A DNA stretch of 64,000 nt, from assembly GCA_038064575.1 (NCBI GenBank), contig JBBTST010000005.1, forward strand, positions 1,382 to 65,381, read 5' to 3'. Below are positions 24,416 through 63,624 of the stretch, piece after piece. The first letter of the stretch is position 1; each line of letters starts with the position of its first letter. This stretch comes from Patescibacteria group bacterium (GTDB lineage Bacteria > Patescibacteriota > WWE3 > UBA101185 > 2-01-FULL-41-18). The translations under genes were made by a program, and so were the position numbers. The notes under the pieces are model-generated. The model had not been told where the DNA came from and ran no database searches. It saw only the letters and a list, made by a program, of their open reading frames with translations.

Positions 24416-24482
24416 TGGCTGAGCATGTCGGTCTAGAACCCATTTTACTCTCTAGGATGTAAATGAGACAAATGAGACAGTA
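24416..24482 (+). repeat. Repeat B, a tRNA-3'-end-like direct repeat and partner of repeat A
   Basis: See repeat A. On the minus strand it reads TTCTAGACCGACATGCTCAGCCA. It sits immediately 3' of the Shedu-like gene. Confidence 0.55.
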
Positions 24483-24492
24483 CTCAACTGTG

Positions 24493-25653
24493 TTATAGCT
24501 TCTCACGCGATAAGTGCATAGAAGCATTACCTCTATCTAATAAGTCTTTATATGTAATCACTTCAATACCATGTAGTGCATGATTCATCTTTCTCAGAGC
24601 ATCTCTCTTATATATGTCCCAGTTAGTACTATCGCCAATTAAAATATAGGCATGGGGTTTGAGCAAAGATAGCTCAATATTATATATTTGAGCAATATTA
24701 GGTTCAATTTCTCTTCTTAGCCTATCAACTTCACTCAAGTAATTAATAACCTGTCCTATAGCAACATTTGTTTCTGCTGACCATCGCCATGCATTAGTAT
24801 GACTAGTGTCTTTAATAATAACCTCATCTGATGGGAGTTTAATTTCCAGAATGTCTACAAATCCATCTAGTGTAGGAAATAGGTAGTCGGGCATAATACC
24901 TGTTAGATTTATCTTTGCTTTCTCAATAGGTTTTTGGTAGTTCACACCAAATAACCAGTTATTTTTATAAATCCATTTTTGCCATGAATCGTCACCTGTA
25001 GTTTCCGAATAATTACCGTGTTCTAATCTCATACCGAGTTCATCGATCACATTCTGCTTTTTGCTTTGAATTCGTGCATATGTTAATTTTTGGATTAAAG
25101 TAGGATTTGATTCTGATAGATATACCCATACGTCTTCACCATATCCCGCATCAATAAGTTTCTTAACATAAGCAACTTTATTTTCGTCTGTTATTATGAC
25201 TTTTTCTGGATCAACTATAGTGTAAGAAGTTGCATCAAAATCAATTTCTTCAATACCTTTTATAAAATTTATTAATCCAAAGAAGTTTTCATGACACGAA
25301 TCCAAATCAACTCTTGCTTTAATAAGCTTGTCATCTTGCGTTTCCTTCGAGAAATTGCTAATTGCTTTATTAGAAATGTCTCTTATTTCAAATGAAAATC
25401 GTGGTGTAAACTTTCCATTTTCCTTTTTTATTAATGTAATTACACATGACTTTTCTACCTTAGCGGATTCCTCTAAGACAAATCTTTTTATAAGACCTTT
25501 TTTTGTATTTTTGAAGTACCAAAAACCATTGGTGCCAGTTTTGTCAATCTCAATTGTTGTTAAAGAATCAGAACCAACCACAAAATCTGTGTTTTCGTAA
25601 TCAGGTTCTACCGCCCACATTTTTAGTCGTTTTCGCTGATCATCAGTTAACAT
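24493..25653 (-). CDS. Shedu-like (DUF4263) PD-(D/E)xK nuclease, candidate antiphage effector SduA
   Basis: 386 aa. The C-terminal region carries MPDYLF...(14 aa)...DILEIK, a PD / ExK triad with the spacing seen in characterised SduA. A variable N-terminal domain is typical for Shedu. Confidence 0.5.
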   Translation of the reverse strand: MLTDDQRKRLKMWAVEPDYENTDFVVGSDSLTTIEIDKTGTNGFWYFKNTKKGLIKRFVLEESAKVEKSCVITLIKKENGKFTPRFSFEIRDISNKAISNFSKETQDDKLIKARVDLDSCHENFFGLINFIKGIEEIDFDATSYTIVDPEKVIITDENKVAYVKKLIDAGYGEDVWVYLSESNPTLIQKLTYARIQSKKQNVIDELGMRLEHGNYSETTGDDSWQKWIYKNNWLFGVNYQKPIEKAKINLTGIMPDYLFPTLDGFVDILEIKLPSDEVIIKDTSHTNAWRWSAETNVAIGQVINYLSEVDRLRREIEPNIAQIYNIELSLLKPHAYILIGDSTNWDIYKRDALRKMNHALHGIEVITYKDLLDRGNASMHLSREKL

Positions 25654-25784
25654 AATTTATTATAAATCCTAAAATAGAACCTTTATTCGGAAATTTATGC
25701 AGTTCTATCGTAGATAACTTTTTTACGCGTGCCATAAGGGCATTATACGAGACAGTTCATATTTGGTCACGTCTAATGGAGTGT

Positions 25785-27461
25785 CTACTTATTATCTGTT
25801 ACGCGAGCAACTAATTTCTTCCCATCCTCAGACCAAGATAGTTTTACGCTTCGTTCTGGTTTCCTAGGATATTTCTCTAAAAATTCTTTGTTTTCGGAAA
25901 TTAAATAGACTGTACAGTATGTTCTTCCATCAGGTCTTTTTAGTTTCCTGCCGTGTAAAATACCTTCTCGTTCAAGTTTACCTCTAGTAGCAGGCTGAAC
26001 ACTAAATTCGGACTTAATTTCGTATTCTTTAATCCAAATCTTATTATCATGATCCCAACTTAAAGATGGGATAATACCTTCCTTAATGTTTCTCCAACAA
26101 TCAGCACATCTTAAACCATCAAGATTCCACCATATTTTATTACTTTCTATTGTTTCTCTACATATAGCACAGGTATAGTGACCTTCCGTAGGTTCGAGAA
26201 AAAATCCCTCTGGTTCTTTTTCTAGTCTTCTCTTTCTGATGTTTTCTACAGCTTCTTGTTTGCCTTGGATTTTCGCCATTTGGACATAAGGGTGGTTTGC
26301 ATACTTAGACTTCTTTATAGGGTCAAAGTCCTGTTTCTTATCCTCTTTAACTTTTCCTGCTATTTCTAACAAATCCTCCTCTCGCTCATACCCTTTTAAT
26401 TTGCCAGAGATGTAACCTAATCTGTCACTAAGACCTTCATTCATTAAACGCCAGTTTGTATCTTCTAATTTTGTTTTTAATAGTTTTTGAAGATCATATT
26501 GTGAAGTCCTTTTATTACGAGTGGGGTCGGAATCTTGAAAAGAGAAAGGTACGATAACATGCCTATCAATTTCAGGTTTATCGAAAAAAAGCTTAGTATA
26601 TTTATGTTCATCTAAAATGCTACTAAGCATTGCTTCAAGATCCGCAATACTTAATCTTTTTAATCTTGATACTTTTTCATAAATTGGGTTATCAATCTCA
26701 CGCTTAACCTCTTCCTTTACAAAAGAAGCATACTCGGACGCTTCCATTAGTTCGATTGCTTCTGCTCCCTTTTCTTCATCAAGACAGAATTCACTTCTAT
26801 ATTTTTCAAGTAATGCTTTATCTTCGTCTTCTTTAGCTTTACGTTCTGCTCTGCTTTTTCCGAAATCGTTAACGTCTGTATTTTTATAGCCACAAGATTT
26901 ACAAACAGTTTTCCAAGTTATTACCTCCCCTTTTCTAGTTTGAGAAACTTTTACTTCTTTATTACACTTAGGACAAAGCTGTGGCTTAGATTCGTGGATT
27001 TCTCCGTTGTCGTAAACAGCAGTTTTCTTAGTACATTTTGTGCAGTCGAAAAAGAACAGTACTCTAAGAGGTTTATCTGTCCAATCGTTTTCTAGAGTCT
27101 TAAATGTTGTTTTCATAGCGGAGTTACAATCAGGACACCTTATGTCTTGTGGTTCAGAAGTATTATCGTATTTGTCTTGAAACTTTTGATCTCGGTCTAT
27201 CCACTCATTTAGTCGTGTCTTTTTATTTTGAAACTCTAAACCCTTTTTAACATACAGGCTTACATTTAACATGTATGAAAAGGCTTTATGTCGCTCTTCG
27301 TCTGGTTTGTCCTTTAACTTTTCATCGTTGGAGCTGTTTTGATAGGCTTTCTGGCATATGCGGATATGGTCTAGGCATTCTTTAATTGTGAATAAGTCGT
27401 ATAGATCAATATAGTATTGTTCAGATTTAAGGTGTTTTTCACCCCTATCTTTTTCTTCCAC
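25785..27461 (-). CDS. multi-zinc-ribbon protein of unknown function (558 aa)
   Basis: Six CxxC pairs form three predicted zinc ribbons: CPDC/CTKC, CPKC/CKSC and CAIC/CADC. No enzymatic motif recognised. Last gene of a tightly spaced three-gene operon with 12- and 17-nt gaps. Confidence 0.5.
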   Translation of the reverse strand: MEEKDRGEKHLKSEQYYIDLYDLFTIKECLDHIRICQKAYQNSSNDEKLKDKPDEERHKAFSYMLNVSLYVKKGLEFQNKKTRLNEWIDRDQKFQDKYDNTSEPQDIRCPDCNSAMKTTFKTLENDWTDKPLRVLFFFDCTKCTKKTAVYDNGEIHESKPQLCPKCNKEVKVSQTRKGEVITWKTVCKSCGYKNTDVNDFGKSRAERKAKEDEDKALLEKYRSEFCLDEEKGAEAIELMEASEYASFVKEEVKREIDNPIYEKVSRLKRLSIADLEAMLSSILDEHKYTKLFFDKPEIDRHVIVPFSFQDSDPTRNKRTSQYDLQKLLKTKLEDTNWRLMNEGLSDRLGYISGKLKGYEREEDLLEIAGKVKEDKKQDFDPIKKSKYANHPYVQMAKIQGKQEAVENIRKRRLEKEPEGFFLEPTEGHYTCAICRETIESNKIWWNLDGLRCADCWRNIKEGIIPSLSWDHDNKIWIKEYEIKSEFSVQPATRGKLEREGILHGRKLKRPDGRTYCTVYLISENKEFLEKYPRKPERSVKLSWSEDGKKLVARVTDNK

Positions 27462-27478
27462 TCTTCTATTTTACACGC

Positions 27479-27691
27479 TCAATTAATTTTTCTGAATCTG
27501 TACTTATCTTTTATATTGTCATGGAAATATGCACCGTGGGAGCTAGAATTCATTAAGCTTCGATAAACATTTTCCGGCACATTAAAATATTGGTATATAC
27601 CACCGTCGTTAAATTCTATTTCTAAAGTTGACGTTAAGCCATCATAACCAATGGAGTCTATATTAGATGAAGTTACGTTAGTTCGTTGCAT
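27479..27691 (-). CDS. KTSC domain protein
   Basis: 70 aa matching the KTSC signature SSNI.SIGYD..T.TLEIEF.DGGIYQY..VP..VY..LMN..S.G.YF..NIK..Y. Confidence 0.6.
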   Translation of the reverse strand: MQRTNVTSSNIDSIGYDGLTSTLEIEFNDGGIYQYFNVPENVYRSLMNSSSHGAYFHDNIKDKYRFRKIN

Positions 27692-27703
27692 GTCGTTATT
27701 TTA

Positions 27704-29197
27704 TCACTTCATTTGCTGAGCTGCCAGATAATCTTTAATTACCATGGTTGCTTTACAGTCATCCTCGTTGTAATCCAGAATCCTTTGTAATTTTTTTGGG
27801 TCTTGGTCTTTTAAATACTCGTTATACCACTGAATAGACAACGCTCCAGATGGTGTTTCATCCCTCCATTTAAACCCGAGATATTGGGCAATTTCTTTTA
27901 CTGAATAACTACCTAACGGCCAGTCTGTGTGGGGCAAAATCACATGGGTATATAAATCAACTGCTATTTCCTTATCAAAAAATGCTTCAAGTTCTTCTTC
28001 TGTTACAACATTAGGGTAAAGTTCTCTCATTTTCTTATAAATTGTTTTCTCATGCTGGGAGTAGTAATAAACTGCAAAATCATCTGTTGGTAATGATCGA
28101 ATGTATTCCCAAAATTCAATCCAAGCCTGTTTCTCGGCTTCTGGTGTTGTATCTGATGCTACAAAGGGTACAAATCGTTCACCATTTGGCGATCTTTCAT
28201 AAACTCCGTGCAAATAGACCATTTCTTGCGTTGGATCATCCTCAATATCAAAGTATAGTTCATAAGATTTTTGTGGAAATTCTAGATGTTTGTAAATCAC
28301 TGGTTTTGAATTGCTATTTAGGAGAAACGCTCTTTGCACTATTTTAGTTAAAGTTTTTTCAGCGATACCAGAAAGAAAATTCTTATCTGTAGCTTTCTTT
28401 GCCATAACCTCGGCTACATTTACATTTATAATATCTTCAACGCGTTCAATGCCTAAGTCTTCATTTAGTTTATCCCTTTTACTTCTTCCTAAATAAAAAA
28501 TAGTTGTTAAGTCGTGTGTATTTTTAGCCCATGTTTTGCAACTTTTATACCAAGGGCAGAGTTTACAAATTCCTGCCATTGCAGGTTTGTTTTGTATTTT
28601 ATTATCAAGCATTAACTCTACTTCATTTCTTATTTCATAATAGAACTGCCACCAAGTATTTTTGTTCTTTATACCTATTTCATTTTGAAGATCGTAAATC
28701 ACTTCTTGATTGTGAATATCTATAATTCTAGCTTTATCAGAGTTAGCAAATCCAAGCTTTTTTAGGATCTCCACATAGTGACATAGCTGCACAGCATAGT
28801 GTTTTTTGTATTTTTCTTCACCTTCTTCATCAGATCCTTCAAATCCGCGTCCACTCTTTATATCTATAGGAGTATATGTACCATCCTCATTACTTTTTAG
28901 TAGATCCGGAATTCCTAAAAGATTTTCGTGCATTAATACACCTTGATAAATAAGACCCGTGCCTTTTTTCATTTCTTCGATTGTTTCTTCAAAGCGTTGT
29001 TCGTAGCTCCCTTCAGATAAGTTTGCTAATTGGCCTAATGTAGAAACCACTTTACCTTCGTGTAATACTCCCTTATCCCAAAGCAATTGCACAAATGGGT
29101 TTGGTTCTGGGTTCTTTTCTTCTTGTGGACCGTACTTATCCCTCCACACTCGGTGCGTACATTGTAAGTAGTTGTACAAAGTTGAAGCGGATATCAT
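27704..29197 (-). CDS. TM0106-family RecB/Cas4-like Fe-S nuclease
   Basis: 497 aa. N-terminal Cys (LQCTHRVWRDKYGP) plus CKLCPWYKSCKTW give a four-Cys Fe-S cluster pattern as in Cas4/AddB. Nuclease motifs GIPDLL...IDIKS are present. The C-terminal half is RNase-H-like, as in TIGR03491 proteins. Confidence 0.65.
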   Translation of the reverse strand: MISASTLYNYLQCTHRVWRDKYGPQEEKNPEPNPFVQLLWDKGVLHEGKVVSTLGQLANLSEGSYEQRFEETIEEMKKGTGLIYQGVLMHENLLGIPDLLKSNEDGTYTPIDIKSGRGFEGSDEEGEEKYKKHYAVQLCHYVEILKKLGFANSDKARIIDIHNQEVIYDLQNEIGIKNKNTWWQFYYEIRNEVELMLDNKIQNKPAMAGICKLCPWYKSCKTWAKNTHDLTTIFYLGRSKRDKLNEDLGIERVEDIINVNVAEVMAKKATDKNFLSGIAEKTLTKIVQRAFLLNSNSKPVIYKHLEFPQKSYELYFDIEDDPTQEMVYLHGVYERSPNGERFVPFVASDTTPEAEKQAWIEFWEYIRSLPTDDFAVYYYSQHEKTIYKKMRELYPNVVTEEELEAFFDKEIAVDLYTHVILPHTDWPLGSYSVKEIAQYLGFKWRDETPSGALSIQWYNEYLKDQDPKKLQRILDYNEDDCKATMVIKDYLAAQQMK

Positions 29198-29290
29198 GAG
29201 CGCAATACTCCAGTCCTTATATTGATCTGTAATTTTGATTCTTTCATATACGCATTATAGTACTAGTTAAGTCCGTAGAAACTAGTTGCT

Positions 29291-29704
29291 TTATACCCTC
29301 CTAATTTTATCTATCAAAAACTTTATATAGTAACCTTTGCTAGATTTGACCTGTATGTACATATCATTTAGTAAATAGTTTCCAAAATGTCGTGGTTCAT
29401 TGTCTTGTCGATAATAGAAAGTTATAGGGGCTCTCTTTTTGTATTGGTTAGTTAGATACTCTTTAATGTAGTCTAAATCCTGCTCTCTATTAAACCTATC
29501 TACCGTATTTCTGGCATGTTTGAGGGGTTTTGGAATCTCAGCTTTTTTTGGGATATTATTTTTGGTATTAAAGTCCCAATGTTTCGCACAATTAGGACAC
29601 TTAAAAACACTGCCCTTACTTAGGTTTAATTTTAAAGTAATACCACAGGTGCAAACCACAAATTTGTAGGAATTGTTTTCGTTAGTTTTTATATTGTAAG
29701 GCAA
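29291..29704 (-). CDS. small zinc-ribbon protein. The annotated start is TTG; the frame stays open upstream to 29908.
   Basis: 137 aa with a CTCG...CPNC ribbon. The same frame stays open for 68 more codons upstream with no ATG/GTG/TTG. That stretch encodes a second ribbon, CDIC-x17-CLDC, and overlaps the end of the helicase gene. Confidence 0.45.
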   Translation of the reverse strand: MPYNIKTNENNSYKFVVCTCGITLKLNLSKGSVFKCPNCAKHWDFNTKNNIPKKAEIPKPLKHARNTVDRFNREQDLDYIKEYLTNQYKKRAPITFYYRQDNEPRHFGNYLLNDMYIQVKSSKGYYIKFLIDKIRRV

Positions 29705-29889
29705 TCGCTTTCGAAAAGCGTGTAAAGTTATGCCATGTGTGCTTTCATAGCAGTCTAAGCAATTATTAATAGTTTTATATGGAAACTGTTTGGCAGCAAA
29801 TATCTTATTACAAATATCGCAAGCTCTACTAACGCCATTCTCAAGATCTTCAATTTGAGCGTGTATGTTCTCAATTGTATTTGAAATTA

Positions 29890-32800
29890 TTATTTTTTTT
29901 TTACTATTTCATTAATTCTAGCGTCTAGTGTTGCAACCGGATCTTTACCTATATTAAATCTGTTTATTCTTAAAAAGCTGTAACCGTAGCCTTCTAGAAC
30001 TTTTTGTCTATATATGTCTTCACTGTTCATGTAACTTATATAGTTTGAGGCATTCACATTTTCTAGTTGCGTAAAATGTTCCCTAAAACCATCATACTCA
30101 ACAATTATCTTTTTGTTTTTAAAAATTAGTAAGAAGTCGACTTTATATTCTGGATATGTATATTCTCTAGATAATTGTTTAAGATACTTACCTAAATCGA
30201 ATTGGGGTATAAATTCTATAGTATCCTTGTTGTCTTTATAAAACTTAGTCAAATAGAATATTTCTTGAATTTTAACTTCCATTGGGGAATTTGGATCTGT
30301 ACCTCCTATGATGGTGTTTTTTCCGTTTATCAGTTCATCTCTGTAGTGTATTAGTGCATTCCTAAGCTCACCTTTAAACTCCTCAATTGGTTTACTAAGC
30401 ACAAAATGAATACAATCTTTCGCTCTACTAAACCCTACATTCAGGCGCTGTGCTTTGACATTGTCCTTATTTTCATCAAACAGTACAGGAAATATCCAAT
30501 TAAGCATGTCCTTTTCTTTTGTTGCTACCATAGAATAGAAAATATAATCACGTTCTTCCCCCTGACATGTGTCGAATGTCATGATTTTCAATTTACGATC
30601 ACTAAACAACCATTCCCTTTCCTCTAGCTTGTTCAATACATCAAATAAAAGTGTCACTTGTTCTCTATGTGGAGTTATTATTCCAATAGTTTTAGTGAAG
30701 CCATCTGCCTTTAGTTGCTTAATTACATTAACTATATGCTTTATTTCCAGTTCATTTGTATTGCTATTTTTATCAAGTTTCCCATCATGTTTAATTACAT
30801 CAAACTTAATAACTTCGGTTAGTGGAACACCTCTAATTTTCATACTTTGCAACGTATTATGATAAAAGTATTTATCTGAATAAGATATTATTTCAGGGTA
30901 ACATCGAAAGTGTTTTTGTAATTGACACTGGTAGTTTCTAATAAAACGTGAAAATTTCAGTATTGAGTTCTTAATGTCAAAGTTATCTCTTACCTTTGTT
31001 TCCCAGCCCATCTTATCTTCTCCATTTATCTTTTCTGCTCTAAAAACCTCCTTTATACGTGTTTTATATTGCTGATTGGTTACAGTGCTTGCATTGCCCG
31101 CTTTTACATTCGAAAACTGCTTATCATCTCCTAAAACAATTACTTGTTTACCTCGAATTAGGGCAGGCAAGGCTTGAGATATACTCACTTGAGATGCTTC
31201 ATCGATAATAATTAGATCAAATAAATCTTTTTCTAACGGTATGTATTCAGCATAATCTCTTATTCCAGCTAAAATGCAGGGAAAAGCTTTTTTTAAATTT
31301 TTAAACAGTGCTATAGGGAATTCTTGTTTATTTTTAAGTATAGTTTTAAGTGTATTAACCTCCCCTGCATTATCTTGAGAATACTCGATTATTCTTTTGT
31401 CCAAGAAATAGGTCATTTGAGCAGTTATTAATTGCTCTACAGTCTCAATTCTAGTTATATAGTCATCCGCAGGTGCATTTGTAAAACTGTTTGTTAGCTT
31501 CGATTCTAGATGTTTATAATCAATGATTTCTCCTAATAATTCTTCTGACTTTTCCAACAGAAGAAAATCAAATTCATTTATGTTACCTTCAATATTTATA
31601 TTTAACTCTTTAGCCAGTCCTGGATGTAATTCTATAAATTCCTCCACATACTCAAAGTTTTTGGAAAGCTTAGCTAACACCAAACATGAATTACAATATT
31701 CTTTGATTCTTTCAGTATTGATATCATTTTTTATAACATCAGTGCTTAATTCCTTATCGATAATTTTAAGTCCTTCGTTCTCTAAATAAACAAAGCCGGC
31801 ATTTAACTCGCTTGAGATACGCTCTAAATTTAGTATGTCTACATAACAGAGCAATAATTTTGGATTAAGATTCTTAAGAGCATCAAAGTTAACAATTATA
31901 TTGTGTATTTCCTTTATATCTGTGAAAAACTCATCAAACGCATTAATATAATCAGAATTCTTGTAATTACTTAAAAGCTGAAAGACATTATCAAATGTTT
32001 CGCGTTTTCTACTTACAATCTTAGATTGAATAAAATAAAGTAGGTCATATAAGTATGTTATAGAGTCGAGTTTTTTTTCAGGATTCTCAATATTAAAGTA
32101 GTTAAATGTTTTCTTAAGCTCTCTTGTTAAATCATTAAGTTCACTCTTATTGAAAAAAAAGCCAAAAATAGGTTTACGCAAACTTTTAACATTCTTTATA
32201 TATTTATTAAGCGCATTCAGTGCTGTGTCTAGATCGATGTCAGGATCCACATATAAATCATGTAGCTTACCAAGATCGTTAGAATACTTTTGGTTAAACT
32301 TCAATGCGTTTTGAAAAAGATTCTGTACAAAAACTACGTCACCATAAACATATTCCAGTTCTGAAAACAAGTTACTTTTTAACCATTGTTTGTATAGAGG
32401 CCACTCACTAAGGGCTTTTAGAGAAATAATATGATTGAAGATAGCTTCGACCCGTAATATATGTTTTATAGATAATAAGTTACTTGCCTTATCCTTCCCC
32501 AATACAGGACCTAATTCTCTATAAGCATCATTTGTTTTCTTACCTTCTAGAGAACTAATGATTTGTTTTGAAGTTTCAACATTTTTTAAAAGTTCTTGTA
32601 GTTTTTCTGTATTCTTCTCATTTATAAAACTTTTGCTGTAATTGGCATTTGTGTGAAAAGACAGTTGTTCAAGTAGTTCTTTTAATTTTGGTAACTTTTC
32701 TAAACCTTCTAGGTCTTCGTTTTTAATTAGATCGTTTTCAAATGAAAGCTTATTTTCTAGTTCAAAGTACCTAATAATATCGTCAATACTAATTGCGTCA

Positions 32801-34551
32801 AAGTGCTTAATAGTTGTCTCTAAATCATTTTTTAGCTTAGTAAGTAAGAGATCTTTCTGTTGTACGGTCGATTCTTGTGTCTTTTTATATGCTAGATAAT
32901 GATTCTTTATTTTTTGAATTGTCTGACCTTGGACAATTTTATAAAACTTGTTTCCGGACCCACCTAATCTTAAAATGGGATTCTGAAAATCCTCTTCGTG
33001 CCTAATCTTATTTAATGTCCCCGCAATTTTTTCCTCTACAACATCTAAAGCCTCTTTTTTATCGGAAAGTACAAGGACTGATTTTTCCTCTAGTAAAGCT
33101 TTACATATGATTGCTGTGATTGTGTGACTTTTACCAGTTCCTGGGGGGCCTTCAAGTATCATAAATTTACAATCGGGTTTTTGCAGTGCCATCAATACTT
33201 GTTTCTGCTCATCATTAAGTGGAATTGGACTTTCAACAATAAGCTTAGTAGAGCAGCTCAGTTCCTGCCATTCTGTATCAATCTCATCAATAAAAGATTT
33301 CGGATTTTCCTTTATAAACCCATCTAATAAATGCGTGAAGTCTTCTATAAGTTCACCATCATCGTTTAGTATTTTCTCATAATCATTAATGAGTGCTTCA
33401 TCAGATTTGTCAAAAAGAAATATATAACATTTATTAGACAACCCTGTAATTAAACTTAGTCCTTTTTGCAATCTGGCATCCTGTATATCTATTGTCAGAC
33501 CTAACTCTAAAAAGTTTTCTATTTTTCTTACTATTGTTGTTACTTTATCAAAAAAATCATCTTCACTATTAATATAAATAACTCTTTCAAAATCTACGGC
33601 AAGTGTAGACTTTCTGTTTGATTGGCGATTGAATTCCTGCACTACAAAATCTAAACCTTGTGAATTTACATATATTCTATGTTCAAAATTTAATATAAAT
33701 CTGTCCTCATCTTTTTCTACATGTATAGGCATATAGAATAGTGGAAAAGTTTCATTACCCAAAGATAGCTCAAAGAAATAAAAGTAAATTTCCGTTTTAT
33801 CTATCAATTTACCGTTCCTATATATTTGATATAGCTCGGAAAATAAATCGCTTACAGCACTATTTTCGAAAAACATTGTTAGCTTTGCCTTCAGACTTTC
33901 CAAAGGTATGATCTCTTCTAAAGCGCTAACGATATCGAAATCAACAGCACCTTCTTTTACTTCAAATATTTTCTGTAGTAGATCAGTTAATTGATTTTCT
34001 ACATCGCCAAAAAGAGTATCTATGATATCTGTCTCAAGCTGAAATTTACTGTTTTCGTCCGCCAAGCCGAGATTTTCTAGTGGTTTATCTAAATCTTGTA
34101 AAAATGGGTAGATTAATACTTTCGAATAAGAGCTTTTAATTGAACTGATGCCTTCTTCCAAATACTGATCATACGAATCATTGTACTTAGTTTTGCAGTC
34201 ATAAATGCGTTTTTCTATCTCTATATGTGCCTGAGTGATATCTTTGCTTTTTAATGCTTCAACTCTAGAAATTATTAGTTTTAATAGTGATGTTGGAATT
34301 TTAGTAGTATATTCATTTTTTTTAACTACTAAAGATTGATTTTCAAAAGATTTGGCAAATTGCTTGAGAAGAGCCTGCTTAAAATCAATAAATTTATCTA
34401 AATCTACTGCGACTTTCAAACCATTGTTTGTTTTCTGTATTGTATTTCTTTTTGGCACTCTTCTCTTCTTGAAGTCAGTTTCAAGAAAGTTCATAAAGTA
34501 TTTTGCAACCTCTTTAACAAAGTTGTTTGGTTCAGTGACTGCTTTTGCCAT
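29890..34551 (-). CDS. giant UPF1/DNA2-like SF1B helicase with a C-terminal DUF559/Vsr-like PD-(D/E)xK endonuclease domain
   Basis: 1553 aa. Walker A is LEGPPGTGKSHTI and motif II is IIIDEASQV...VLGDDKQF. A second RecA-like domain is IMTFDTCQGEERDYIFYSMV. The C-terminus, VDFLL...IIVEYDGFREH, has the DUF559 / REase_MTES_1575-type fold. There is a long N-terminal alpha-rich region of about 450 aa. Confidence 0.75.
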   Translation of the reverse strand: MAKAVTEPNNFVKEVAKYFMNFLETDFKKRRVPKRNTIQKTNNGLKVAVDLDKFIDFKQALLKQFAKSFENQSLVVKKNEYTTKIPTSLLKLIISRVEALKSKDITQAHIEIEKRIYDCKTKYNDSYDQYLEEGISSIKSSYSKVLIYPFLQDLDKPLENLGLADENSKFQLETDIIDTLFGDVENQLTDLLQKIFEVKEGAVDFDIVSALEEIIPLESLKAKLTMFFENSAVSDLFSELYQIYRNGKLIDKTEIYFYFFELSLGNETFPLFYMPIHVEKDEDRFILNFEHRIYVNSQGLDFVVQEFNRQSNRKSTLAVDFERVIYINSEDDFFDKVTTIVRKIENFLELGLTIDIQDARLQKGLSLITGLSNKCYIFLFDKSDEALINDYEKILNDDGELIEDFTHLLDGFIKENPKSFIDEIDTEWQELSCSTKLIVESPIPLNDEQKQVLMALQKPDCKFMILEGPPGTGKSHTITAIICKALLEEKSVLVLSDKKEALDVVEEKIAGTLNKIRHEEDFQNPILRLGGSGNKFYKIVQGQTIQKIKNHYLAYKKTQESTVQQKDLLLTKLKNDLETTIKHFDAISIDDIIRYFELENKLSFENDLIKNEDLEGLEKLPKLKELLEQLSFHTNANYSKSFINEKNTEKLQELLKNVETSKQIISSLEGKKTNDAYRELGPVLGKDKASNLLSIKHILRVEAIFNHIISLKALSEWPLYKQWLKSNLFSELEYVYGDVVFVQNLFQNALKFNQKYSNDLGKLHDLYVDPDIDLDTALNALNKYIKNVKSLRKPIFGFFFNKSELNDLTRELKKTFNYFNIENPEKKLDSITYLYDLLYFIQSKIVSRKRETFDNVFQLLSNYKNSDYINAFDEFFTDIKEIHNIIVNFDALKNLNPKLLLCYVDILNLERISSELNAGFVYLENEGLKIIDKELSTDVIKNDINTERIKEYCNSCLVLAKLSKNFEYVEEFIELHPGLAKELNINIEGNINEFDFLLLEKSEELLGEIIDYKHLESKLTNSFTNAPADDYITRIETVEQLITAQMTYFLDKRIIEYSQDNAGEVNTLKTILKNKQEFPIALFKNLKKAFPCILAGIRDYAEYIPLEKDLFDLIIIDEASQVSISQALPALIRGKQVIVLGDDKQFSNVKAGNASTVTNQQYKTRIKEVFRAEKINGEDKMGWETKVRDNFDIKNSILKFSRFIRNYQCQLQKHFRCYPEIISYSDKYFYHNTLQSMKIRGVPLTEVIKFDVIKHDGKLDKNSNTNELEIKHIVNVIKQLKADGFTKTIGIITPHREQVTLLFDVLNKLEEREWLFSDRKLKIMTFDTCQGEERDYIFYSMVATKEKDMLNWIFPVLFDENKDNVKAQRLNVGFSRAKDCIHFVLSKPIEEFKGELRNALIHYRDELINGKNTIIGGTDPNSPMEVKIQEIFYLTKFYKDNKDTIEFIPQFDLGKYLKQLSREYTYPEYKVDFLLIFKNKKIIVEYDGFREHFTQLENVNASNYISYMNSEDIYRQKVLEGYGYSFLRINRFNIGKDPVATLDARINEIVKKK
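29893..29902 (-). repeat. A10 homopolymer on the coding strand (T10 on plus), directly abutting the helicase stop codon
   Basis: Minus-strand sequence is GTA-A10-TAA. The A-run forms the terminal KKK codons of the helicase. One extra A, or a -1 slip, enters the start-less zinc-ribbon frame. Confidence 0.8.
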
Positions 34552-34815: not shown

Positions 34816-36168
34816 ATGACTAACAAACTTAGTGGTATCAATGATGCCAAGCTACAAATATTTAATTTGAACATAAAGGATATTAATCCTTCCGCCTATA
34901 ACCCTCGAAAATGGGATAAGTATAAAATTGACCAATTAACCAAAAGTATTACTGACTTTGGTGTTGTAGATCCTTTAGTAATTAATTCCGCCGAAAACAG
35001 AAAGAATATAGTTATTGGCGGTCATTTTAGACTTAAAGTCTTAAAAGAAATGGGATATATCGAAGTCCCATGTGTGTATGTAAATATCCCTGAGATTGAA
35101 CGTGAAAAAGAATTAAATTTAAGACTAAACAAAGCCGTTGGTGATTGGGATTTCAAACTTCTGGCTGAGTTTGATACATCCCTTTTATCAAACGTTGGTT
35201 TTTCAAGCGAAGAGTTAGATCAAATATTTGATATTGATGATTCACCAGAGCAATTTGATTTAGAAAAAGAACTTAATAAACTAAACATTAAAAATATCAC
35301 TATTAAAAAAGGCGATGTAATTTCTCTTGGAAATAGTAAATTAATGTGTGGGGATTCTACAGTCGAGGAGGATATGTTAAAGCTGATGAATGGAGAGAAA
35401 GCAGACATGTGCTTCACAGACCCACCCTATCTATTGGATTATTTAAACGGAAAAAAGAAAGGTGGTAAAGCAACAACAGGATTTGGAGCCAAAAGAAATC
35501 GCCGTTATCTCGAAACAGACACATTACCAGATGACTTCACAGAGAAATGGATGGCGAACATTAATAAAATCCAAAACGATAGTTTCTCCATAATAGTCTA
35601 CGAAAATTGGAAGAACATAAGAACTATTTGGGGAGAACTTGAGAAATATTGGAAGGTAAAAAACATGATTGTTTGGAGATTACCCAACAGGGTGCAGGGT
35701 TTTTCTGGTAAATATAGATTCTTTTCCAAACATGATATTGCTATGGTTGGAGCTTCACCTAACACAGATATTGAGTTCAACATGGAAACAGAGCCAGATG
35801 GTTTGCAGGAGGAATATGAAACAGCTCTTTATGCGATATCAGGTAAACCACAATGGGAAAGCTATAAAAAAGGCAAGAAGTATCAGCCAACAGACTTTAT
35901 TGATTACAAAGCCTCCGATGAAAAGAGCTCTGGGCAAGGAGTAGTATTTGGTACTAAGCCAATCGAAATATTAATACCATACATAAAAGTATTAACTAGA
36001 AGAAATGAATTAATCGTTGAACCTTTTGGTGGTAGTGGATCTACTCTTATTGCAGCAACAAAAATGAGACGTAGGTGTTATGTAATGGAGAAATCTCCTG
36101 TTTATGCTGAAGTTATTGTTAAAAGATGGGAGAAGTTAACTGGTTTAAAGGCGAAAGTTAATGCCTAA
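34816..36168 (+). CDS. ParB-like nuclease domain / DNA (amino) methyltransferase fusion
   Basis: 450 aa. The N-terminal ParB/Srx fold is present (DPLVIN...GGHFRLKVLKEMGY). The C-terminal MTase has motif IV DPPY (MCFTDPPYL) and motif I FGGSGST, a beta-class order consistent with N6-adenine (or N4-cytosine) methylation. Confidence 0.75.
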   Translation: MTNKLSGINDAKLQIFNLNIKDINPSAYNPRKWDKYKIDQLTKSITDFGVVDPLVINSAENRKNIVIGGHFRLKVLKEMGYIEVPCVYVNIPEIEREKELNLRLNKAVGDWDFKLLAEFDTSLLSNVGFSSEELDQIFDIDDSPEQFDLEKELNKLNIKNITIKKGDVISLGNSKLMCGDSTVEEDMLKLMNGEKADMCFTDPPYLLDYLNGKKKGGKATTGFGAKRNRRYLETDTLPDDFTEKWMANINKIQNDSFSIIVYENWKNIRTIWGELEKYWKVKNMIVWRLPNRVQGFSGKYRFFSKHDIAMVGASPNTDIEFNMETEPDGLQEEYETALYAISGKPQWESYKKGKKYQPTDFIDYKASDEKSSGQGVVFGTKPIEILIPYIKVLTRRNELIVEPFGGSGSTLIAATKMRRRCYVMEKSPVYAEVIVKRWEKLTGLKAKVNA

Positions 36169-36538
36169 GCGTACTAAATATGTTGAGGATAAAATACAGG
36201 AGGATAAGGACAGACTCCTAGCTGAATTGGAAAAAATGCCTGTAGTTGAGGTAGCTTGTAAAAGAACTGGTATATGTAGAGCTACCTACTATCGTTGGAT
36301 TAATGAAGACAAGGCTTTTAGCCAATCAGCACGTATAGCTCAAATAGAAGGTATTAAGTTAATAAATGACGCAATGGAATCTACACTAATTTCGTTAGCT
36401 TTAGAAAATAGAAGCATGGGTGCTATCAGGTTTTGGCTTGAAAATAGACACGCTGATTACAAGCAAAACAAAGAGCTAGAGAGGTCTAGGAAGCTGAAGA
36501 ATAATTTTACTAAGCTATCCAGACCGGATATCTATTAG
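36161..36538 (+). CDS. terminase small subunit-like HTH DNA-binding protein
   Basis: 125 aa with an N-terminal HTH (VACKRTGICRATYYRWINED) and a C-terminal RFWLENRHADY, reminiscent of phage TerS (Terminase_2-like) proteins. It overlaps the MTase stop by 8 nt, consistent with an operon. Confidence 0.4.
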   Translation: MPKRTKYVEDKIQEDKDRLLAELEKMPVVEVACKRTGICRATYYRWINEDKAFSQSARIAQIEGIKLINDAMESTLISLALENRSMGAIRFWLENRHADYKQNKELERSRKLKNNFTKLSRPDIY

Positions 36539-36569
36539 TAGATAGCGTTATTTTGTTATAATCACATTA

Positions 36570-36690
36570 GAAAAATTAACAGCCGCGAAAAAAAATCCAC
36601 TGTAAAAAGTGGTGCATGGAACCTGAAAAGGGGCTACCCTATTGGGTTTCATGCTTCGCGGCTGTTACTACAAGGGTAGTCCCTTTTTGT
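36570..36690 (+). other. structured RNA-like element ending in a U-tract (candidate ncRNA / attenuator / intrinsic terminator)
   Basis: It is preceded by an extended -10 promoter, TGTTATAAT, at 36553-36561. An 11-bp outer stem pairs ACAGCCGCGAA with TTCGCGGCTGT. It encloses a CCACT/AGTGG hairpin and a 10-bp stem GCATGGAACC/GGTTTCATGC. A loop segment, GGGCTACCCT, is complementary to the downstream AGGGTAGTCCC, which is followed by TTTTTGTTTG. Confidence 0.35.
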
Positions 36691-36782
36691 TTGTGGTAAC
36701 AATTAGCGAACTCATGCAAAACCTTGCATATATACCTTTGTAGCGTCATCAATGTCGCAGTAATAATTTATAGGAGGTATAT

Positions 36783-37325
36783 ATGTATTTATACGAGGCT
36801 AAAAAATTTAATGTTAAGTACATTACAGGTATAGGAGCAGTCACTAAGCCTACAGATAGTTATTTGTTATCTATAGAAAGTGAAGGAATAAAACTTTGGC
36901 GTCTTCTATCACCAACAGTATTAATAAAATGGACAGATATTCAGAAAATTTCCTCAGAAACACAAAATGAAGCATCCAAGTCCTTATCAATGGGCAAAGC
37001 TGCAGTAGGTTTAGTATTACTGGGACCGCTCGGTGCCTTAATAGGAGCAGGAATGGGGTCTAAAAAGCCACTCTTTGTTTCTATTTCTTACAAAGACTCG
37101 TATGGAGAAATTTGCGAGTGCTTGGTGCAAACTAAACAAGCACATGAAATAGCTACGAAACTAAACAACGAGAGAAAAGAATATTATAGAAAAAACAATA
37201 TTCCACTAACAACTGAAACGGTTTCAAATTTAGATCAGCTTGAAAAGCTAGCAGAACTTAAAGATAAAGGTGTTATTTCTTCGGATGAGTTTGAGGCTAA
37301 GAAGAAACAATTACTAGACTTGTAA
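36783..37325 (+). CDS. SHOCT-domain protein
   Basis: 180 aa with a central hydrophobic Gly-rich segment and a C-terminal SHOCT motif (LEKLAELKDKGVISSDEFEAKKKQLL). Confidence 0.5.
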   Translation: MYLYEAKKFNVKYITGIGAVTKPTDSYLLSIESEGIKLWRLLSPTVLIKWTDIQKISSETQNEASKSLSMGKAAVGLVLLGPLGALIGAGMGSKKPLFVSISYKDSYGEICECLVQTKQAHEIATKLNNERKEYYRKNNIPLTTETVSNLDQLEKLAELKDKGVISSDEFEAKKKQLLDL

Positions 37326-38111
37326 ATTTCTAGCTAATCTTTCTGAGTCAGTGGTTTCTTTTTGTTTTATTTGAGCATAAATTTCCTGTTTTTTCTTTTC
37401 CCTGTCGGCAATGGCGATTTCATGCTCGATGATCCGATAACCTTGTAGAGCTTTTTTAAAAGCAGTTCTATCACTTTCTCTTTCTAACAAAAGTACTATG
37501 TATGCATTTAAAGATATATTTTCATCTAATGCGATATTCTTAAGAAAACTAGCTAACCCTTCCATATTTTCTGCTAAGTGCTCAAAATTTTTCACAGCAA
37601 CATTAATACCTGAAAGTAATGCAGTATTTAGACTATCTAATAACCTATTAATAGTTTCCGTATCTGTATTTATTCGCTCAATTGTTAACCAGTAGTCAGA
37701 CACTTCGTTTATTAGATTTATATCACCTAAATCTAGTTCTATGTCCTCAAGAATTTTAAGCTTTGGAAATCTATGAGCTGGCATTACTGGAGGATTCTGT
37801 CTTAGTTTCTGTACTGAACTTTCAAGAGAATATACAAGCCTACTGATGTTATCCTGCTGTTTTACAATTGTATATTCAACCCTTACCAAGGCATCATGAT
37901 GCCTTTTATATCTAGTCCGCCTTTTGTCTTGTTCACTGGAAAGTCTTTCAAACAAAAATGCAAAGAATGCTCCCGAAAAGCCTCCTAAAAAAGCAATCCA
38001 TGCTTCTCTGGAAAAGTTTTGATTAGTCTGATTAATAAGGGTTTCTAGATTAGATATTAGTTTATCCATATCTTGAATGTTTATTTGCTGTTGTGACTGA
38101 AACCAATGCAT
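37314..38111 (-). CDS. hypothetical protein with an N-terminal TM helix
   Basis: 265 aa, coiled-coil rich, with no domain recognised. Convergent with the SHOCT gene, overlapping by 12 nt. Confidence 0.35.
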   Translation of the reverse strand: MHWFQSQQQINIQDMDKLISNLETLINQTNQNFSREAWIAFLGGFSGAFFAFLFERLSSEQDKRRTRYKRHHDALVRVEYTIVKQQDNISRLVYSLESSVQKLRQNPPVMPAHRFPKLKILEDIELDLGDINLINEVSDYWLTIERINTDTETINRLLDSLNTALLSGINVAVKNFEHLAENMEGLASFLKNIALDENISLNAYIVLLLERESDRTAFKKALQGYRIIEHEIAIADREKKKQEIYAQIKQKETTDSERLARNLQV

Positions 38112-38171
38112 GCGAGGATTTTACCACTACCTATGGACTTTCTTAAGTTATTGCGTCATCCATTGGTATAG

Positions 38172-39467
38172 ATGACGCAGAATACAATCTCGCCAAAATA
38201 CTGTTTATACGCTCGTAAAAGCTCCGAATCGGACGAGAGGCAAGCCATGTCAATCGATTCACAAATCAAGGAAATGACGGCACTAGCCGAAAAAGAAGGT
38301 ATAGAAATAGTAGATATAAAGCAGGAAAGCCATTCGGCAAAGATTTCAGGTTCCAGACCACTATTTCTAGAAATGATAAAGGAGCTAAACTACGGAAAGT
38401 ACAATGCTATTCTAACCTGGGCACCTGATAGGTTAAGCAGAAACGCTGGGGATTTAGGCTCACTAGTAGACCTTATGGACAGGGTTAAGCTCTTACATAT
38501 AAGGACTATATCTCAATCTTTTTCAAACAATCCAAACGAAAAGTTTCTACTGATGATTCTCTGCTCACAAGCAAAGCTTGAAAATGACAACAGAGGTTTA
38601 AATGTCAAAAGAGGTATAAGAACAAAATGTGAGATGGGCTGGCGACCCTGCCCTGCTCCTATTGGTTATATCAACTATTCTCATGGCGGAACTAAAAAGG
38701 TAATGGTAAACAAAGAGGTAGCCCCATTAGTAAAAGAACTTTTCGATTTAGTAGCTACGAAAAAGTACAGCGGTAGGGACATAAAAAAGTATCTGGATAA
38801 AGATGGAAGATTAAACAAAGCTACTGGAAAGAAAATACCATTAAGCATGATTTACAGAATGCTAAAAACACCTTTCTACTACGGTGAGTTCCAATATCCA
38901 GAAGGTGATGGCCCTTGGTATAAAGGTGCTCACGAACCAATTATTCCAAAATGGCTCTTTGATAAAGTCCAACAAAAGCTGGTAGTACCTAGAAAGTCTA
39001 AGTGGGGCGCTAAAGACTTTTTATTTAAGAATGTTTTCAGGTGCGCTTACTGCGGAGCAACCATAGTAGGAGAAGAAAAATTCAAGATGCTTAAAGTAGG
39101 CCAGAAACGAACTTATATTTACTATCACTGCACAAAACAAGTAGATGCAGAGTGTCCCGAAATGTATGTAGCAGAAAACATACTAATTGGATCCTTGATT
39201 AGCTACATACAGCTTATTGAAGTAAAAAAGCCAGACACATTACAACTAACAAATGAAGTAAAAAAGAGCATGAGGAAGTTTTCAGGTCTAAGAGCGCATT
39301 TACTAACTGAACAAAATGTAACGTTACCTGCAGAGTTAACATTTACTGAATACCTAAAATACATTATTTACAACGGAACGGATACTGAGAAACACGAAGT
39401 AATTGAATCACTTCCAAAACCACTATATATACATAATGGCACTATTTATTCACATCCTTTAGGATAA
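38172..39467 (+). CDS. large serine recombinase (resolvase/integrase family)
   Basis: 431 aa. The N-terminal resolvase catalytic domain has the nucleophile serine context YARKSSESDE...SIDSQ. A recombinase domain and a C-terminal zinc ribbon (CAYCG...YYHCTKQ) follow, as in large serine recombinases. Confidence 0.8.
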   Translation: MTQNTISPKYCLYARKSSESDERQAMSIDSQIKEMTALAEKEGIEIVDIKQESHSAKISGSRPLFLEMIKELNYGKYNAILTWAPDRLSRNAGDLGSLVDLMDRVKLLHIRTISQSFSNNPNEKFLLMILCSQAKLENDNRGLNVKRGIRTKCEMGWRPCPAPIGYINYSHGGTKKVMVNKEVAPLVKELFDLVATKKYSGRDIKKYLDKDGRLNKATGKKIPLSMIYRMLKTPFYYGEFQYPEGDGPWYKGAHEPIIPKWLFDKVQQKLVVPRKSKWGAKDFLFKNVFRCAYCGATIVGEEKFKMLKVGQKRTYIYYHCTKQVDAECPEMYVAENILIGSLISYIQLIEVKKPDTLQLTNEVKKSMRKFSGLRAHLLTEQNVTLPAELTFTEYLKYIIYNGTDTEKHEVIESLPKPLYIHNGTIYSHPLG

Positions 39468-39484
39468 AAAGTTATACTGTTAGC

Positions 39485-39952
39485 ATGGAATATAAATTAA
39501 CCCCAGAGATAATTACGTTGCACAGATATTTTATTTGGGCGGACAGAATGCGTGTGCATTTTGATGAAGTTTTAAGTAATAATAAAAATACAACAACTAT
39601 AGAAACTGAAGAATTTATAGAGAAGAAAAAAGGTATTGATACATTCTTATACATGTCCTTATGGTACGGAACATTTTATGTACTTATTGAGGGTTGGATT
39701 GAACTAGGATTGTCTGACCCAGAAATAGATACATTTTTAAAATCTCCAAACGTTAATTTACTAAGACGTTATAGGAATGGAGCATTTCATTTTCAAAAAG
39801 ATTATTTCGACAAACACTTCACAGAATTGATGACTGAAGGTGAAGACTTTGCAAATTGGTCACGAGACCTACGAGATCACATTAGTAGATGGTTTTTAGA
39901 CATTCATAGGCAATCGAAAGAGGAACAGGGACTCGAACCGTCAAGCACATGA
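39485..39952 (+). CDS. hypothetical protein (155 aa)
   Basis: ORF immediately downstream of the recombinase. No domain recognised. Confidence 0.3.
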   Translation: MEYKLTPEIITLHRYFIWADRMRVHFDEVLSNNKNTTTIETEEFIEKKKGIDTFLYMSLWYGTFYVLIEGWIELGLSDPEIDTFLKSPNVNLLRRYRNGAFHFQKDYFDKHFTELMTEGEDFANWSRDLRDHISRWFLDIHRQSKEEQGLEPSST

Positions 39953-40054: not shown

Positions 40055-40128
40055 ATGCAGTTCTTGGCTGGGGAGCAGGGATTCGAACCCCAATAGGCAG
40101 CTCCAAAAGCTGCTGTCCTACCATTAGA
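40055..40128 (-). tRNA. tRNA-Gln (anticodon UUG)
   Basis: Hand-folded. A U1-A72 acceptor (TGGGGAG/CTCCCCA) with discriminator G and encoded CCA, as in bacterial tRNA-Gln. The anticodon stem is GCAGC/GCTGC with loop TTTTGGA. T-arm is GGGGTTCGAATCCC. Confidence 0.85.
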
Positions 40129-40276
40129 CGACTCCCCATCATTTCAAAACACCTTCAAATACCAAGAAGATTATATCATTTAGATGTAACTACTAATTAA
40201 TATAGGAAAACTAGCATTTTCTTCTGGTATCTATTCTAACAATTATATAGTCCGCAAACTTTGCTATAATTTTCTT

Positions 40277-41264: not shown

Positions 41265-41294
41265 TGGTGGTCTATTGTGAATGAAATTGCGAAC
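41265..41294 (+). repeat. 30-nt junction repeat TGGTGGTCTATTGTGAATGAA(A/G)TTGCGAAC, copy 1
   Basis: A second copy lies at 42619-42648. Both begin with TGGTGG (CCACCA on the minus strand), the same hexamer that ends tRNA-Phe. Confidence 0.6.
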
Positions 41295-41301
41295 CTTTTC
41301 A

Positions 41302-42525: not shown

Positions 42526-42544
42526 AACTAAAGTATTTTAACAC

Positions 42545-42609
42545 TAAAAAGTTCGACTTCCCACTCTCTATCAAGGCAGAAACTACAGGATTATATTGTT
42601 AGGACAAAG
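42545..42609 (+). repeat. 65-nt leader repeat, copy 1 (identical copy at 43471-43535)
   Basis: Exact 65-nt identity. Each copy lies immediately 5', in gene orientation, of a minus-strand cassette gene. It is followed by 3 variable nt and then ATTTGATGGTGG. Confidence 0.7.
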
Positions 42610-42618
42610 CGTATTTGA

Positions 42619-42648
42619 TGGTGGTCTATTGTGAATGAAGTTGCGAAC
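42619..42648 (+). repeat. 30-nt junction repeat, copy 2
   Basis: See the copy at 41265-41294. One mismatch (A/G). Confidence 0.6.
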
Positions 42649-43445: not shown

Positions 43446-43470
43446 ATAAATATTTTACATCTTTTAAAAT

Positions 43471-43535
43471 TAAAAAGTTCGACTTCCCACTCTCTATCAA
43501 GGCAGAAACTACAGGATTATATTGTTAGGACAAAG
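43471..43535 (+). repeat. 65-nt leader repeat, copy 2
   Basis: Identical to 42545-42609. It abuts ATTTGATGGTGG, which runs directly into the 3' end of tRNA-Phe. Confidence 0.7.
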
Positions 43536-43544
43536 AGGATTTGA

Positions 43545-63611: not shown

Positions 63612-63624
63612 AATAAACAGTCCG

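Follow-up and report, generated by a model that had tools for sequence, protein, structure and literature searches.

A mobile Hhe-like helicase-nuclease with a zinc-ribbon tail in the -1 frame, probably reached by slippage on a run of ten adenines

The stretch of DNA analysed here, 64,000 nucleotides (nt) of contig JBBTST010000005.1 from a Patescibacteria group bacterium (hereafter the window, whose numbering is used throughout), encodes on its minus strand a 1553-residue helicase-nuclease that a first-pass annotation had described. That description missed the functional end of the gene: a conserved tail with two zinc ribbons continues past position 29890 in the -1 frame, starting at a run of ten adenines (A10). 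With moderate confidence we interpret the locus as a mobile helicase-nuclease resembling Hhe (a DUF4011 helicase with a Vsr-like nuclease; NF042953), whose zinc-ribbon tail would be reached by slippage on the A10 run, the gene thereby yielding two isoforms. The domains of the enzyme, the conservation of the run, the constant -1 frame of the tail, the missing start codon and the in-frame fusion of the tail in sister proteins are the observations on which this interpretation is built. In the arrangement proposed, an orphan N-terminal domain is followed by a UPF1-like superfamily 1 (SF1) helicase with a large insert and by a Vsr-like nuclease domain, at the end of which slippage on the A10 run would bring some of the product into the -1 frame. 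The outcome would be a short isoform of 1553 residues and a long isoform of about 1753 residues in a set ratio.

The A10 run and the tail in the -1 frame

By direct reading, the 3' end of the helicase gene is GTA AAA AAA AAA TAA, and the trans-frame peptide predicted across the A10 junction is ..EIVKKKIIISNTIENIHAQIEDLENGVSR. The first ATG, GTG or TTG in the frame of the tail is a TTG at 29704, past the whole of zinc ribbon 1. Public gene calls leave the tail region empty both in this genome and in the nearest relative, and a search for the tail among 5.8 billion proteins returned three truncated entries only; lacking a start codon, the tail-coding region hardly shows up in protein databases. 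Only 2 runs of nine or more A or T were found in the window, against 19.1 ± 6.8 expected. The other nine-A run (2949-2957) encodes an in-frame KKK inside an open reading frame (ORF) of 537 residues (2046-3659).

The tail comprises the two zinc ribbons and a C-terminal domain (Table 1). The profile behind the matches to zinc ribbon 1 and to the C-terminal tail domain was built from the extensions of relatives in which the tail is fused in frame and from three tails of loci in which it is split off by a frame change, the window's own included. The segment of a relative that corresponds to zinc ribbon 2 matches the Zn_Ribbon_TF and Zn_ribbon_8 families. For the C-terminal tail domain, the profile found nothing among PDB sequences, and there was no match in Pfam either. 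The domain corresponds in position to a genuine WYL domain (37-40 bits) of two sister proteins, P0004 and P0031; in P0031, a weak wHTH-like match precedes the WYL domain. Profile comparison (hhalign) of the window's tail domain with these WYL domains gave an alignment in register, at E 0.008 and low probability, which is suggestive, and the WYL model itself (PF13280, cut-off 21.8 bits) matched neither the window's tail nor any of 10 homologues, so that an assignment of the domain to WYL is not supported. Judging from its position, the domain may be a ligand or nucleic-acid sensor, and the tail as a whole would act as a nucleic-acid-binding, ligand-binding or regulatory module.

A scan of species genomes and metagenomes with a profile of the nuclease domain yielded 160 loci, which are called fused or split here according to whether helicase and tail share a frame. 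Of 120 relatives, 19 have helicase and tail fused in frame, and in four relatives from unrelated contexts the gene directly downstream is homologous to the ORF downstream of the helicase in the window (E 1e-17 to 1e-26). All 69 split loci (21 from genomes and 48 from metagenomes) have the tail in the -1 frame and a run of nine or ten adenines (A9-10); a single locus with a +1 tail (L159) has an A8 run. Fused loci have runs of two to eight adenines, except for six close relatives with an A9-10 run read in frame. Between the run and the first CxxC, no ATG, GTG or TTG is present in 48 of the 56 unique split junctions, and the distance from the start of KKK to the first cysteine is exactly 27 residues in nearly all 56. 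The -1-frame peptide that follows KKK (x-Q-N-x-x-[IV]-L-E-x-L-H-x-Q-I) matches the in-frame fusions, and the zero-frame tails are short and variable. None of the 40 other KKK motifs in the same 55 genes is written AAA-AAA-AAA, though AAA accounts for 76% of their lysine codons, and only two further runs of A9 or longer occur in the 181 kb of these genes. Many relatives have A_AAA_AAG in frame, exactly as GTA AAA AAA AAG. The hosts of the split loci belong to the Patescibacteria, Spirochaetota, Pseudomonadota and Atribacterota. At one locus (L119), a stop codon interrupts the tail frame nine codons (about 30 nt) past the A-run; the near-identical L118 and L120 have no such stop, and L119 may be a decaying copy.

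The constancy of the run, the -1 frame, the avoidance of AAA runs elsewhere and the spread over several phyla indicate that the run is under selection at the nucleotide level. The comparison of junctions further indicates that the tail can be read only through a frame change at the run, and the tail product could apparently be made only by slipping on the A10 run. The elements of a slippage cassette are present, namely a slippery run at the frame junction and a conserved downstream frame that has no start codon and is homologous to in-frame fusions. We find it fairly likely that, in the helicase-nucleases of Patescibacteria, Spirochaetota, Pseudomonadota and Atribacterota, an A9-10 slippage site adds a sensor tail with zinc ribbons and a domain at the WYL position to a fraction of the molecules.

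Several points weigh against this interpretation. Slippage and its mechanism are deduced from sequence alone. No shared hairpin follows the run in the junctions of 17 relatives that were folded (the window's own not included), most z-scores falling between -1 and +1.3. Changes between fused and split have taken place in at least four lineages, which implies that the run also mutates at the DNA level, and rare start codons follow the A10 run (ATA ATA ATT in the window). Kinship of the window's tail domain to WYL lacks proof, the fold match of the nuclease domain is weak, with no Foldseek hit at E ≤ 0.001, and the scores against curated anti-phage models all lie far below their cut-offs and cover the helicase core only.

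The missing hairpin, which the ribosomal type would carry 5-9 nt downstream, removes one classical hallmark of ribosomal frameshifting, and slippage of the polymerase needs none. Runs of nine A or T cause efficient slippage of bacterial RNA polymerase, and dnaX of Thermus exploits a nine-base run by transcriptional slippage, A_AAA_AAG being the -1 ribosomal shift site of dnaX in Escherichia coli; the encoding of both tRNA-Lys species is a situation that has been linked to polymerase rather than ribosomal slippage (PMC5009743). Both species are encoded in the window (46750-46824 and 63538-63612; tRNA scan), which, together with the lack of a shared hairpin, favours transcriptional slippage over a ribosomal shift. 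Most likely, RNA polymerase would add one A to the run; otherwise, a -1 ribosomal shift on A_AAA_AAA would give access to the tail.

Homopolymer phase variation of restriction-modification genes is established, and the A-run could likewise be a contingency locus at which gain or loss of an A during replication toggles the gene between fused and split states, with no slippage during expression. Phase variation of this kind is a serious competitor, since within sub-clades the frame follows from the length of the run: the A10 run of L129 leaves the tail fused, the A9 runs of L023, L127, L128 and L130 place it in the -1 frame and the A8 run of L159 places it in the +1 frame; at least four lineages with a fused tail also fall within groups of split relatives. 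The states are, however, strongly skewed (69 loci in -1, one locus in +1 and six fused with a long run), and no pair of near-identical loci differing in state was found, the closest pairs that do differ being at most 79% identical. The 69:1 bias to -1 and the lack of near-identical pairs of this kind argue for a stable, selected configuration. In addition, split loci with an A10 run (the window, L010, L011 and L095) hold the -1 frame by compensating sequence, and a tail that was permanently OFF would lose its conservation, whereas the tails are conserved at E 1e-23 to 1e-31. We therefore regard phase variation without slippage as improbable.

An arrangement of two genes, in which the tail is translated by reinitiation or from a rare start (ATA, ATT or CTG) and the A-run is only a lysine patch, also appears to be a poor candidate. 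It would suit the eight of 56 junctions that have a GTG or TTG 15-60 nt past the run, the GTG starts chosen by gene callers in L001 and L003, and the position of ATA ATA ATT directly past the run in the window. The 48 other junctions, however, have no canonical start before the first zinc-binding cysteines, and the -1 frame is conserved from the run onwards, even before the zero-frame stop is reached, and matches the in-frame fusions. A lysine patch would not need codons that are exclusively AAA, a spelling found in none of the 40 KKK motifs elsewhere in these genes, and the frame relation is always -1.

Homopolymers are error-prone in some sequencing chemistries and fused relatives exist, so a sequencing or assembly error in the run, or a recent inactivating frameshift of a fused gene, was also considered. 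This is scarcely credible: the same A10 junction is present in an independent assembly and the identical 1553-residue product occurs on 8 independently assembled contigs, the 56 unique junctions come from many studies and at least four phyla and share one configuration, and the tail is intact and conserved. Slippage on the A-run remains our preferred interpretation of the junction.

Table 1 Features of the helicase-nuclease locus and its island (window coordinates)
Feature	Position	Strand	Basis
Short isoform of the helicase-nuclease (zero-frame ORF)	29890..34551	minus	1553 uninterrupted codons (ORF list and translation)
N-terminal family-specific alpha/beta domain, residues 1-440	33232..34551	minus	Conservation in the best 120 homologues
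RecA-like domain 1, first part, with Walker A GPPGTGKS	32827..33231	minus	Pfam AAA_11, AAA_19, AAA_30
Variable insert between Walker A and motif II, about 500-515 residues	31282..32826	minus	Low column conservation
Motif II (DEAS), motif III (GDDKQ) and RecA-like domain 2 (QGEERD, VGFSRAK)	30382..31281	minus	Pfam AAA_30/AAA_12, PDB, BLASTP to Hhe
Likely Vsr/DUF559-like PD-(D/E)xK nuclease domain, residues 1391-1553	29893..30381	minus	7/7 members match DUF559 and MTES_1575
A10 homopolymer (T10 on plus), proposed slippage site	29893..29902	minus	Encodes KKK before the stop at 29890-29892
-1-frame tail, 200 residues and stop	29291..29893	minus	Frame open from the A-run
Zinc ribbon 1 (C25, C28, C45, C48)	29705..29875	minus	Profile match E 5e-28
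Zinc ribbon 2 (C81, C83, C99, C102; CPNC..HW)	29570..29662	minus	Direct reading
C-terminal tail domain (FYYR...YYIKFLIDKIRRV), at the WYL position of sister proteins	29294..29521	minus	Profile match E 1e-31
Shedu (SduA) defence gene, left end of the island	24493..25653	minus	PADLOC SduA E 1.6e-80, Pfam SduA_C E 1e-18
558-residue protein	25785..27461	minus	No family match; recurrent neighbour, 6 loci
KTSC-domain ORF, 70 residues, between TM0106 nuclease and 558-residue protein	27479-27691	minus	Public annotation
TM0106-family RecB/Cas4-like nuclease with RNase H-fold domain	27704..29197	minus	TIGR03491 247 bits (cut-off 97); RNase_H_2
ParB-N6/N4 DNA methyltransferase, divergent	34816..36168	plus	Pfam ParB_N, N6_N4_Mtase
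Small HTH protein gene	36161-36538		Accompanies the ParB-methyltransferase
Large serine recombinase, right end of the island	38172..39467	plus	Pfam Resolvase, Recombinase, Zn_ribbon_recom
tRNA-Gln next to the serine recombinase	40065-40138		tRNA scan

Domains of the helicase-nuclease

The zero-frame product has 100% identity to a database protein from a Patescibacteria metagenome-assembled genome. It is a UPF1/DNA2-type superfamily 1B (SF1B) helicase in which GPPGTGKS, DEAS, GDDKQ and QGEERD were all read in the translation, with Walker A near residue 469 and motif II near residue 1115. Pfam searches located AAA_11 at residues 445-673 (E 1e-18; 68 bits, cut-off 27), AAA_12 at residues 1200-1383 (E 5e-23; 82 bits, cut-off 27) and AAA_30 around motif II, and the nearest sequences of solved structure in the PDB were those of Upf1/NAM7, IGHMBP2, SEN1 and DNA2. 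The giant single-chain UPF1/DNA2-like helicase described by the first-pass annotation was thus confirmed in its uninterrupted frame, its motifs and both of its AAA domains. Column conservation is 0.8-0.9 in the cores (0.84-0.90 in the Walker A part of RecA-like domain 1) and reaches its lowest values in the protein, 0.37-0.53, in the insert, whose length among relatives varies from about 200 to 600 residues. The protein is expected to translocate along the single-stranded nucleic acid of an invader, and the Vsr-like domain would cut DNA.

The first 440 residues are a family-specific domain, conserved in all of the best 120 homologues and without a Pfam match in 14 of 14 family members. An AlphaFold model of the domain (pLDDT 80) found no fold match in the PDB or BFVD. 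A DUF4011-type extension had been proposed earlier for this region. Matches to DUF4011 were found in none of the 14 members in Pfam, even at E ≤ 10, and DUF3320, which was also to be looked for, was not found by Pfam in the 1553-residue protein. Comparison by hhalign with the DUF4011-bearing N-terminus of a Vibrio Hhe recovered a 15-column motif at the same position with a non-significant E of 0.11; the true Hhe itself scores 112 bits for DUF4011. On the basis of the Pfam results and the non-significant profile comparison, the presence of DUF4011 or DUF3320 in the N-terminus was rejected, a very distant kinship of the domain to DUF4011 being possible but unproven. Among 1.84 billion representatives, the profile of the domain retrieved 553 clusters (at 50% identity); in the 150 listed of these, the domain is N-terminal in proteins of about 1100-1700 residues (one of 2367 residues) or lies in shorter sequences, which are probably partial.

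The C-terminal domain is likely a Vsr/DUF559-like nuclease. With the full-length protein, MTES_1575 (E 0.013, 16 bits) and DUF559 (E 0.021, 15.1 bits) were detected below the Pfam cut-offs; with the last 163 residues alone, DUF559 scored just above its cut-off (21.2 against 20.6 bits) and MTES_1575 below (22 against 38.2 bits). Seven of seven diverse members match both DUF559 and MTES_1575 (best E 1.8e-6), and five of them also match DUF1064, a PD-(D/E)xK family. Residues D1472, E1485, D1487, H1492, D1512 and R1515 are invariant in the family, as is the motif D..YRQK..LEGYGY..LRI, and residues of the domain align by BLASTP with the same motif in the MTES_1575 domain of a bona fide Hhe. An AlphaFold model of the domain (pLDDT 69) gave weak Foldseek hits, none significant and nearly all to PD-(D/E)xK nucleases, and a search of PDB sequences with the domain profile found nothing. 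The DUF559/MTES_1575 C-terminus of the first-pass annotation is supported, weakly yet consistently, by the matches of the seven members, the invariant residues and the Hhe alignment; the full-length scores are sub-threshold and the fold hits not significant.

In relatives P0082, P0084 and P0087-P0100, and at loci L020, L126, L132 and L138, tryptophan replaces a glycine that is invariant in the family (for example, LEWYWY for LEGYGY). In the genomes of these relatives TGA encodes an amino acid (genetic code 25, translated as code 4), and their lineages have an A10 run together with a tail fused in frame.

The mobile island and a putative role in defence

The gene is part of a block of about 16 kb that lies between thioredoxin/MsrB genes and tRNA-Gln and is composed, from left to right, of Shedu, the 558-residue protein, the KTSC ORF, the TM0106 nuclease, the tail and helicase, the ParB-methyltransferase, the HTH gene, a SHOCT protein and the serine recombinase (Table 1). 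Both of the neighbours named in the earlier annotation, a ParB-methyltransferase and a Cas4-like nuclease, were found, the latter belonging to the TM0106 family; the Shedu gene had been absent from that annotation. Homologues of the 558-residue protein lie near family members in L015, L016, L024, L043 and L044.

Neighbouring genes were counted within 10 kb of the helicase in 82 genome loci. A serine recombinase is present in 22 of these and the TM0106/DUF2779 nuclease in 13, as well as in 7 metagenome loci, often directly downstream of the helicase; the nuclease is possibly part of the system. The ParB-methyltransferase occurs in 13 of the 82 loci and is invariably accompanied by the HTH gene; a terminase-like protein and a serine recombinase are frequent companions. 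At five loci (L007, L011, L016, L043 and L059), the methyltransferase, the HTH gene, a terminase-like gene for about 500 residues (weak Terminase_6C) and a serine recombinase are found at most 5 kb from the helicase; the copy of the module in the window has no terminase-like gene. This recurrence suggests that the modules are small phage-derived integrative elements in Patescibacteria, and the methyltransferase is most readily understood as cargo carried by the same mobile module. Its occurrence in only 13 of 82 loci led us to reject it as an obligate partner, and the idea that it supplies self/non-self discrimination to the enzyme is not supported. What is supported is a location in a mobile, defence-type island with Shedu and a serine recombinase.

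Members of the family turned up in about 116 of 185,579 species genomes; these are dispersed across many phyla and the gene contexts are unrelated, some relatives adjoining genes for ribosomal proteins, EF-G, McrBC or an AAA_15 ATPase. The alternative raised in the first-pass annotation, a housekeeping helicase conserved throughout related genomes, does not agree with this patchy distribution and these variable contexts and was rejected; a phage gene was likewise rejected, with 1 hit among 2.9 million viral contigs. This is what an accessory gene that moves horizontally would show, and it fits neither a housekeeping helicase nor a core gene of phages.

The presence of Shedu and a serine recombinase in the island, McrBC and AAA_15 genes next to relatives and the patchy spread together make up a putative defence context, and the best PADLOC and NCBIfam matches of the helicase are anti-phage helicases. 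The helicase-nuclease might instead work with the TM0106/DUF2779 nuclease in the service of the mobile element itself or of host DNA repair, where it could, for instance, process intermediates of replication or recombination. Recurrence near serine recombinases, terminase-like genes and Cas4-like/RNase H-fold nucleases would fit such a function, as would a homologue on a Priestia plasmid beside UmuC/YolD-type damage-repair genes. However, genes of mobile elements are missing from the vicinity of many loci, whose contexts are unrelated, the viral contigs contributed that single hit, the nearest characterised relatives by profile are anti-phage helicases, and Shedu, McrBC and AAA_15 ATPase genes are among the neighbours; we consider a function outside defence unlikely. 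The Priestia homologue (L168; Priestia megaterium Y11 plasmid NZ_CP065336.1, 22497-26600) is a distant member of 1367 residues with a single zinc ribbon fused in frame, encoded on a complete plasmid from a cultured host, with UmuC-like and YolD-like genes as neighbours, and is a possible experimental handle for the function of the enzyme.

Helicase-nuclease fusions are a common and poorly understood class of bacterial immune proteins. If a fraction of the molecules does acquire the tail by slippage, recoding would fix the stoichiometry of this putative immune effector, and the conserved recoding site would represent a novel means of regulating such an enzyme or of setting its subunit ratio. 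About 600 bases of conserved coding sequence are unannotated in the public records of the family, from which it follows that frame changes linked to homopolymers may hide domains of defence genes, especially in uncultured lineages.

Other features of the window were surveyed. No convincing att-type direct repeats flank the island, promoter and terminator scans gave counts not above chance, and Rfam detected tRNAs only. A direct repeat of 67 nt (84% identity; no Rfam match) has copies at 20166-20232 and 24416-24482, 4.2 kb apart, one past the 3' end of the Shedu gene and the other beyond the thioredoxin/MsrB genes. Repeats of 114 nt (42511-42624 and 43437-43550) and 37 nt (41265-41301 and 42619-42655), 86-92% identical, coincide with the beginnings of successive minus-strand ORFs located between tRNA genes and could be duplicated gene starts or regulatory regions. 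The genome is low in GC (about 35%), and twelve tRNA genes are distributed singly or in small groups over the 64 kb.

Comparison with known systems

By domain order and alignment, Hhe is the closest named relative. The 1553-residue protein has the same order of domains, with an N-terminal domain of about 430 residues, Walker A near residue 450, a very long insert ahead of motif II (the equivalent insert of Hhe is longer), RecA-like domain 2 and a Vsr/MTES_1575-type nuclease, and BLASTP aligned it with the Hhe of Vibrio europaeus at 27% identity over 493 residues that include the nuclease domain (E 3e-23). It differs from Hhe in scoring 86.3 bits against an NCBIfam cut-off of 2000, over the helicase core only, in having no detected DUF4011 or DUF3320 and in carrying instead a tail of zinc ribbons and a WYL-position domain that would be added through a frame change. 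Against ProA (NF058533) the protein scores 154 bits, for a cut-off of 1500 and over residues 1033-1381 only. The best PADLOC matches, Mokosh MkoA/MkoC and PDC-S37 (E 1e-39 to 1e-42), again cover the helicase core only; these differ further in N-terminal domain and tail, and no PLD domain, the nuclease type that accompanies the helicase in Mokosh, was found in the window protein or its neighbours. Membership in Hhe, ProA, PDC-S37 or Mokosh was rejected, all thresholds having been missed. In the literature on PDC-S37, ProA, Hhe and the frameshifting of defence helicases, of which our coverage was incomplete, neither the family nor its recoding is described.

In type III-B CoCoNuT systems, CnuH is a UPF1-like helicase with a helical insert that is fused to a Vsr-like nuclease, and CoCoNuT systems are defined by their associated McrB/McrC homologues (CnuB/CnuC; PMC11090510). 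The window protein shares with them the direct fusion of a UPF1-like SF1 helicase to a Vsr-like PD-(D/E)xK nuclease. In contrast to them, there is no McrB/McrC among its nine annotated neighbour ORFs (24493-29704 and 34816-39952), McrBC was detected by Pfam downstream of the helicase in L005 only of five contexts of relatives inspected, and no OB or SmpB-like domains were found.

The likeness to WYL modules, such as BrxR/CapW-type regulators and PIF1-WYL helicases, is indirect, through the WYL domains of the sisters P0004 and P0031 only; the tail domain of the window has no WYL match and is attached to an enzyme, whereas those regulators are separate repressors. As a recoding arrangement, the nearest parallel is dnaX, in which a homopolymer or heptamer of lysine codons within the gene likewise leads to two products (tau and gamma) with different C-termini. 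The two cases differ in that the slipped product would be the longer one here, in that the gene encodes a mobile helicase-nuclease rather than a replication factor, in the lack of a stimulatory hairpin and in that the case made here is an argument from sequence comparison. On balance, we judge the family to be probably of the Hhe-like helicase-nuclease kind, with the conserved, putatively slippage-dependent tail as its new element and the main result of this work.

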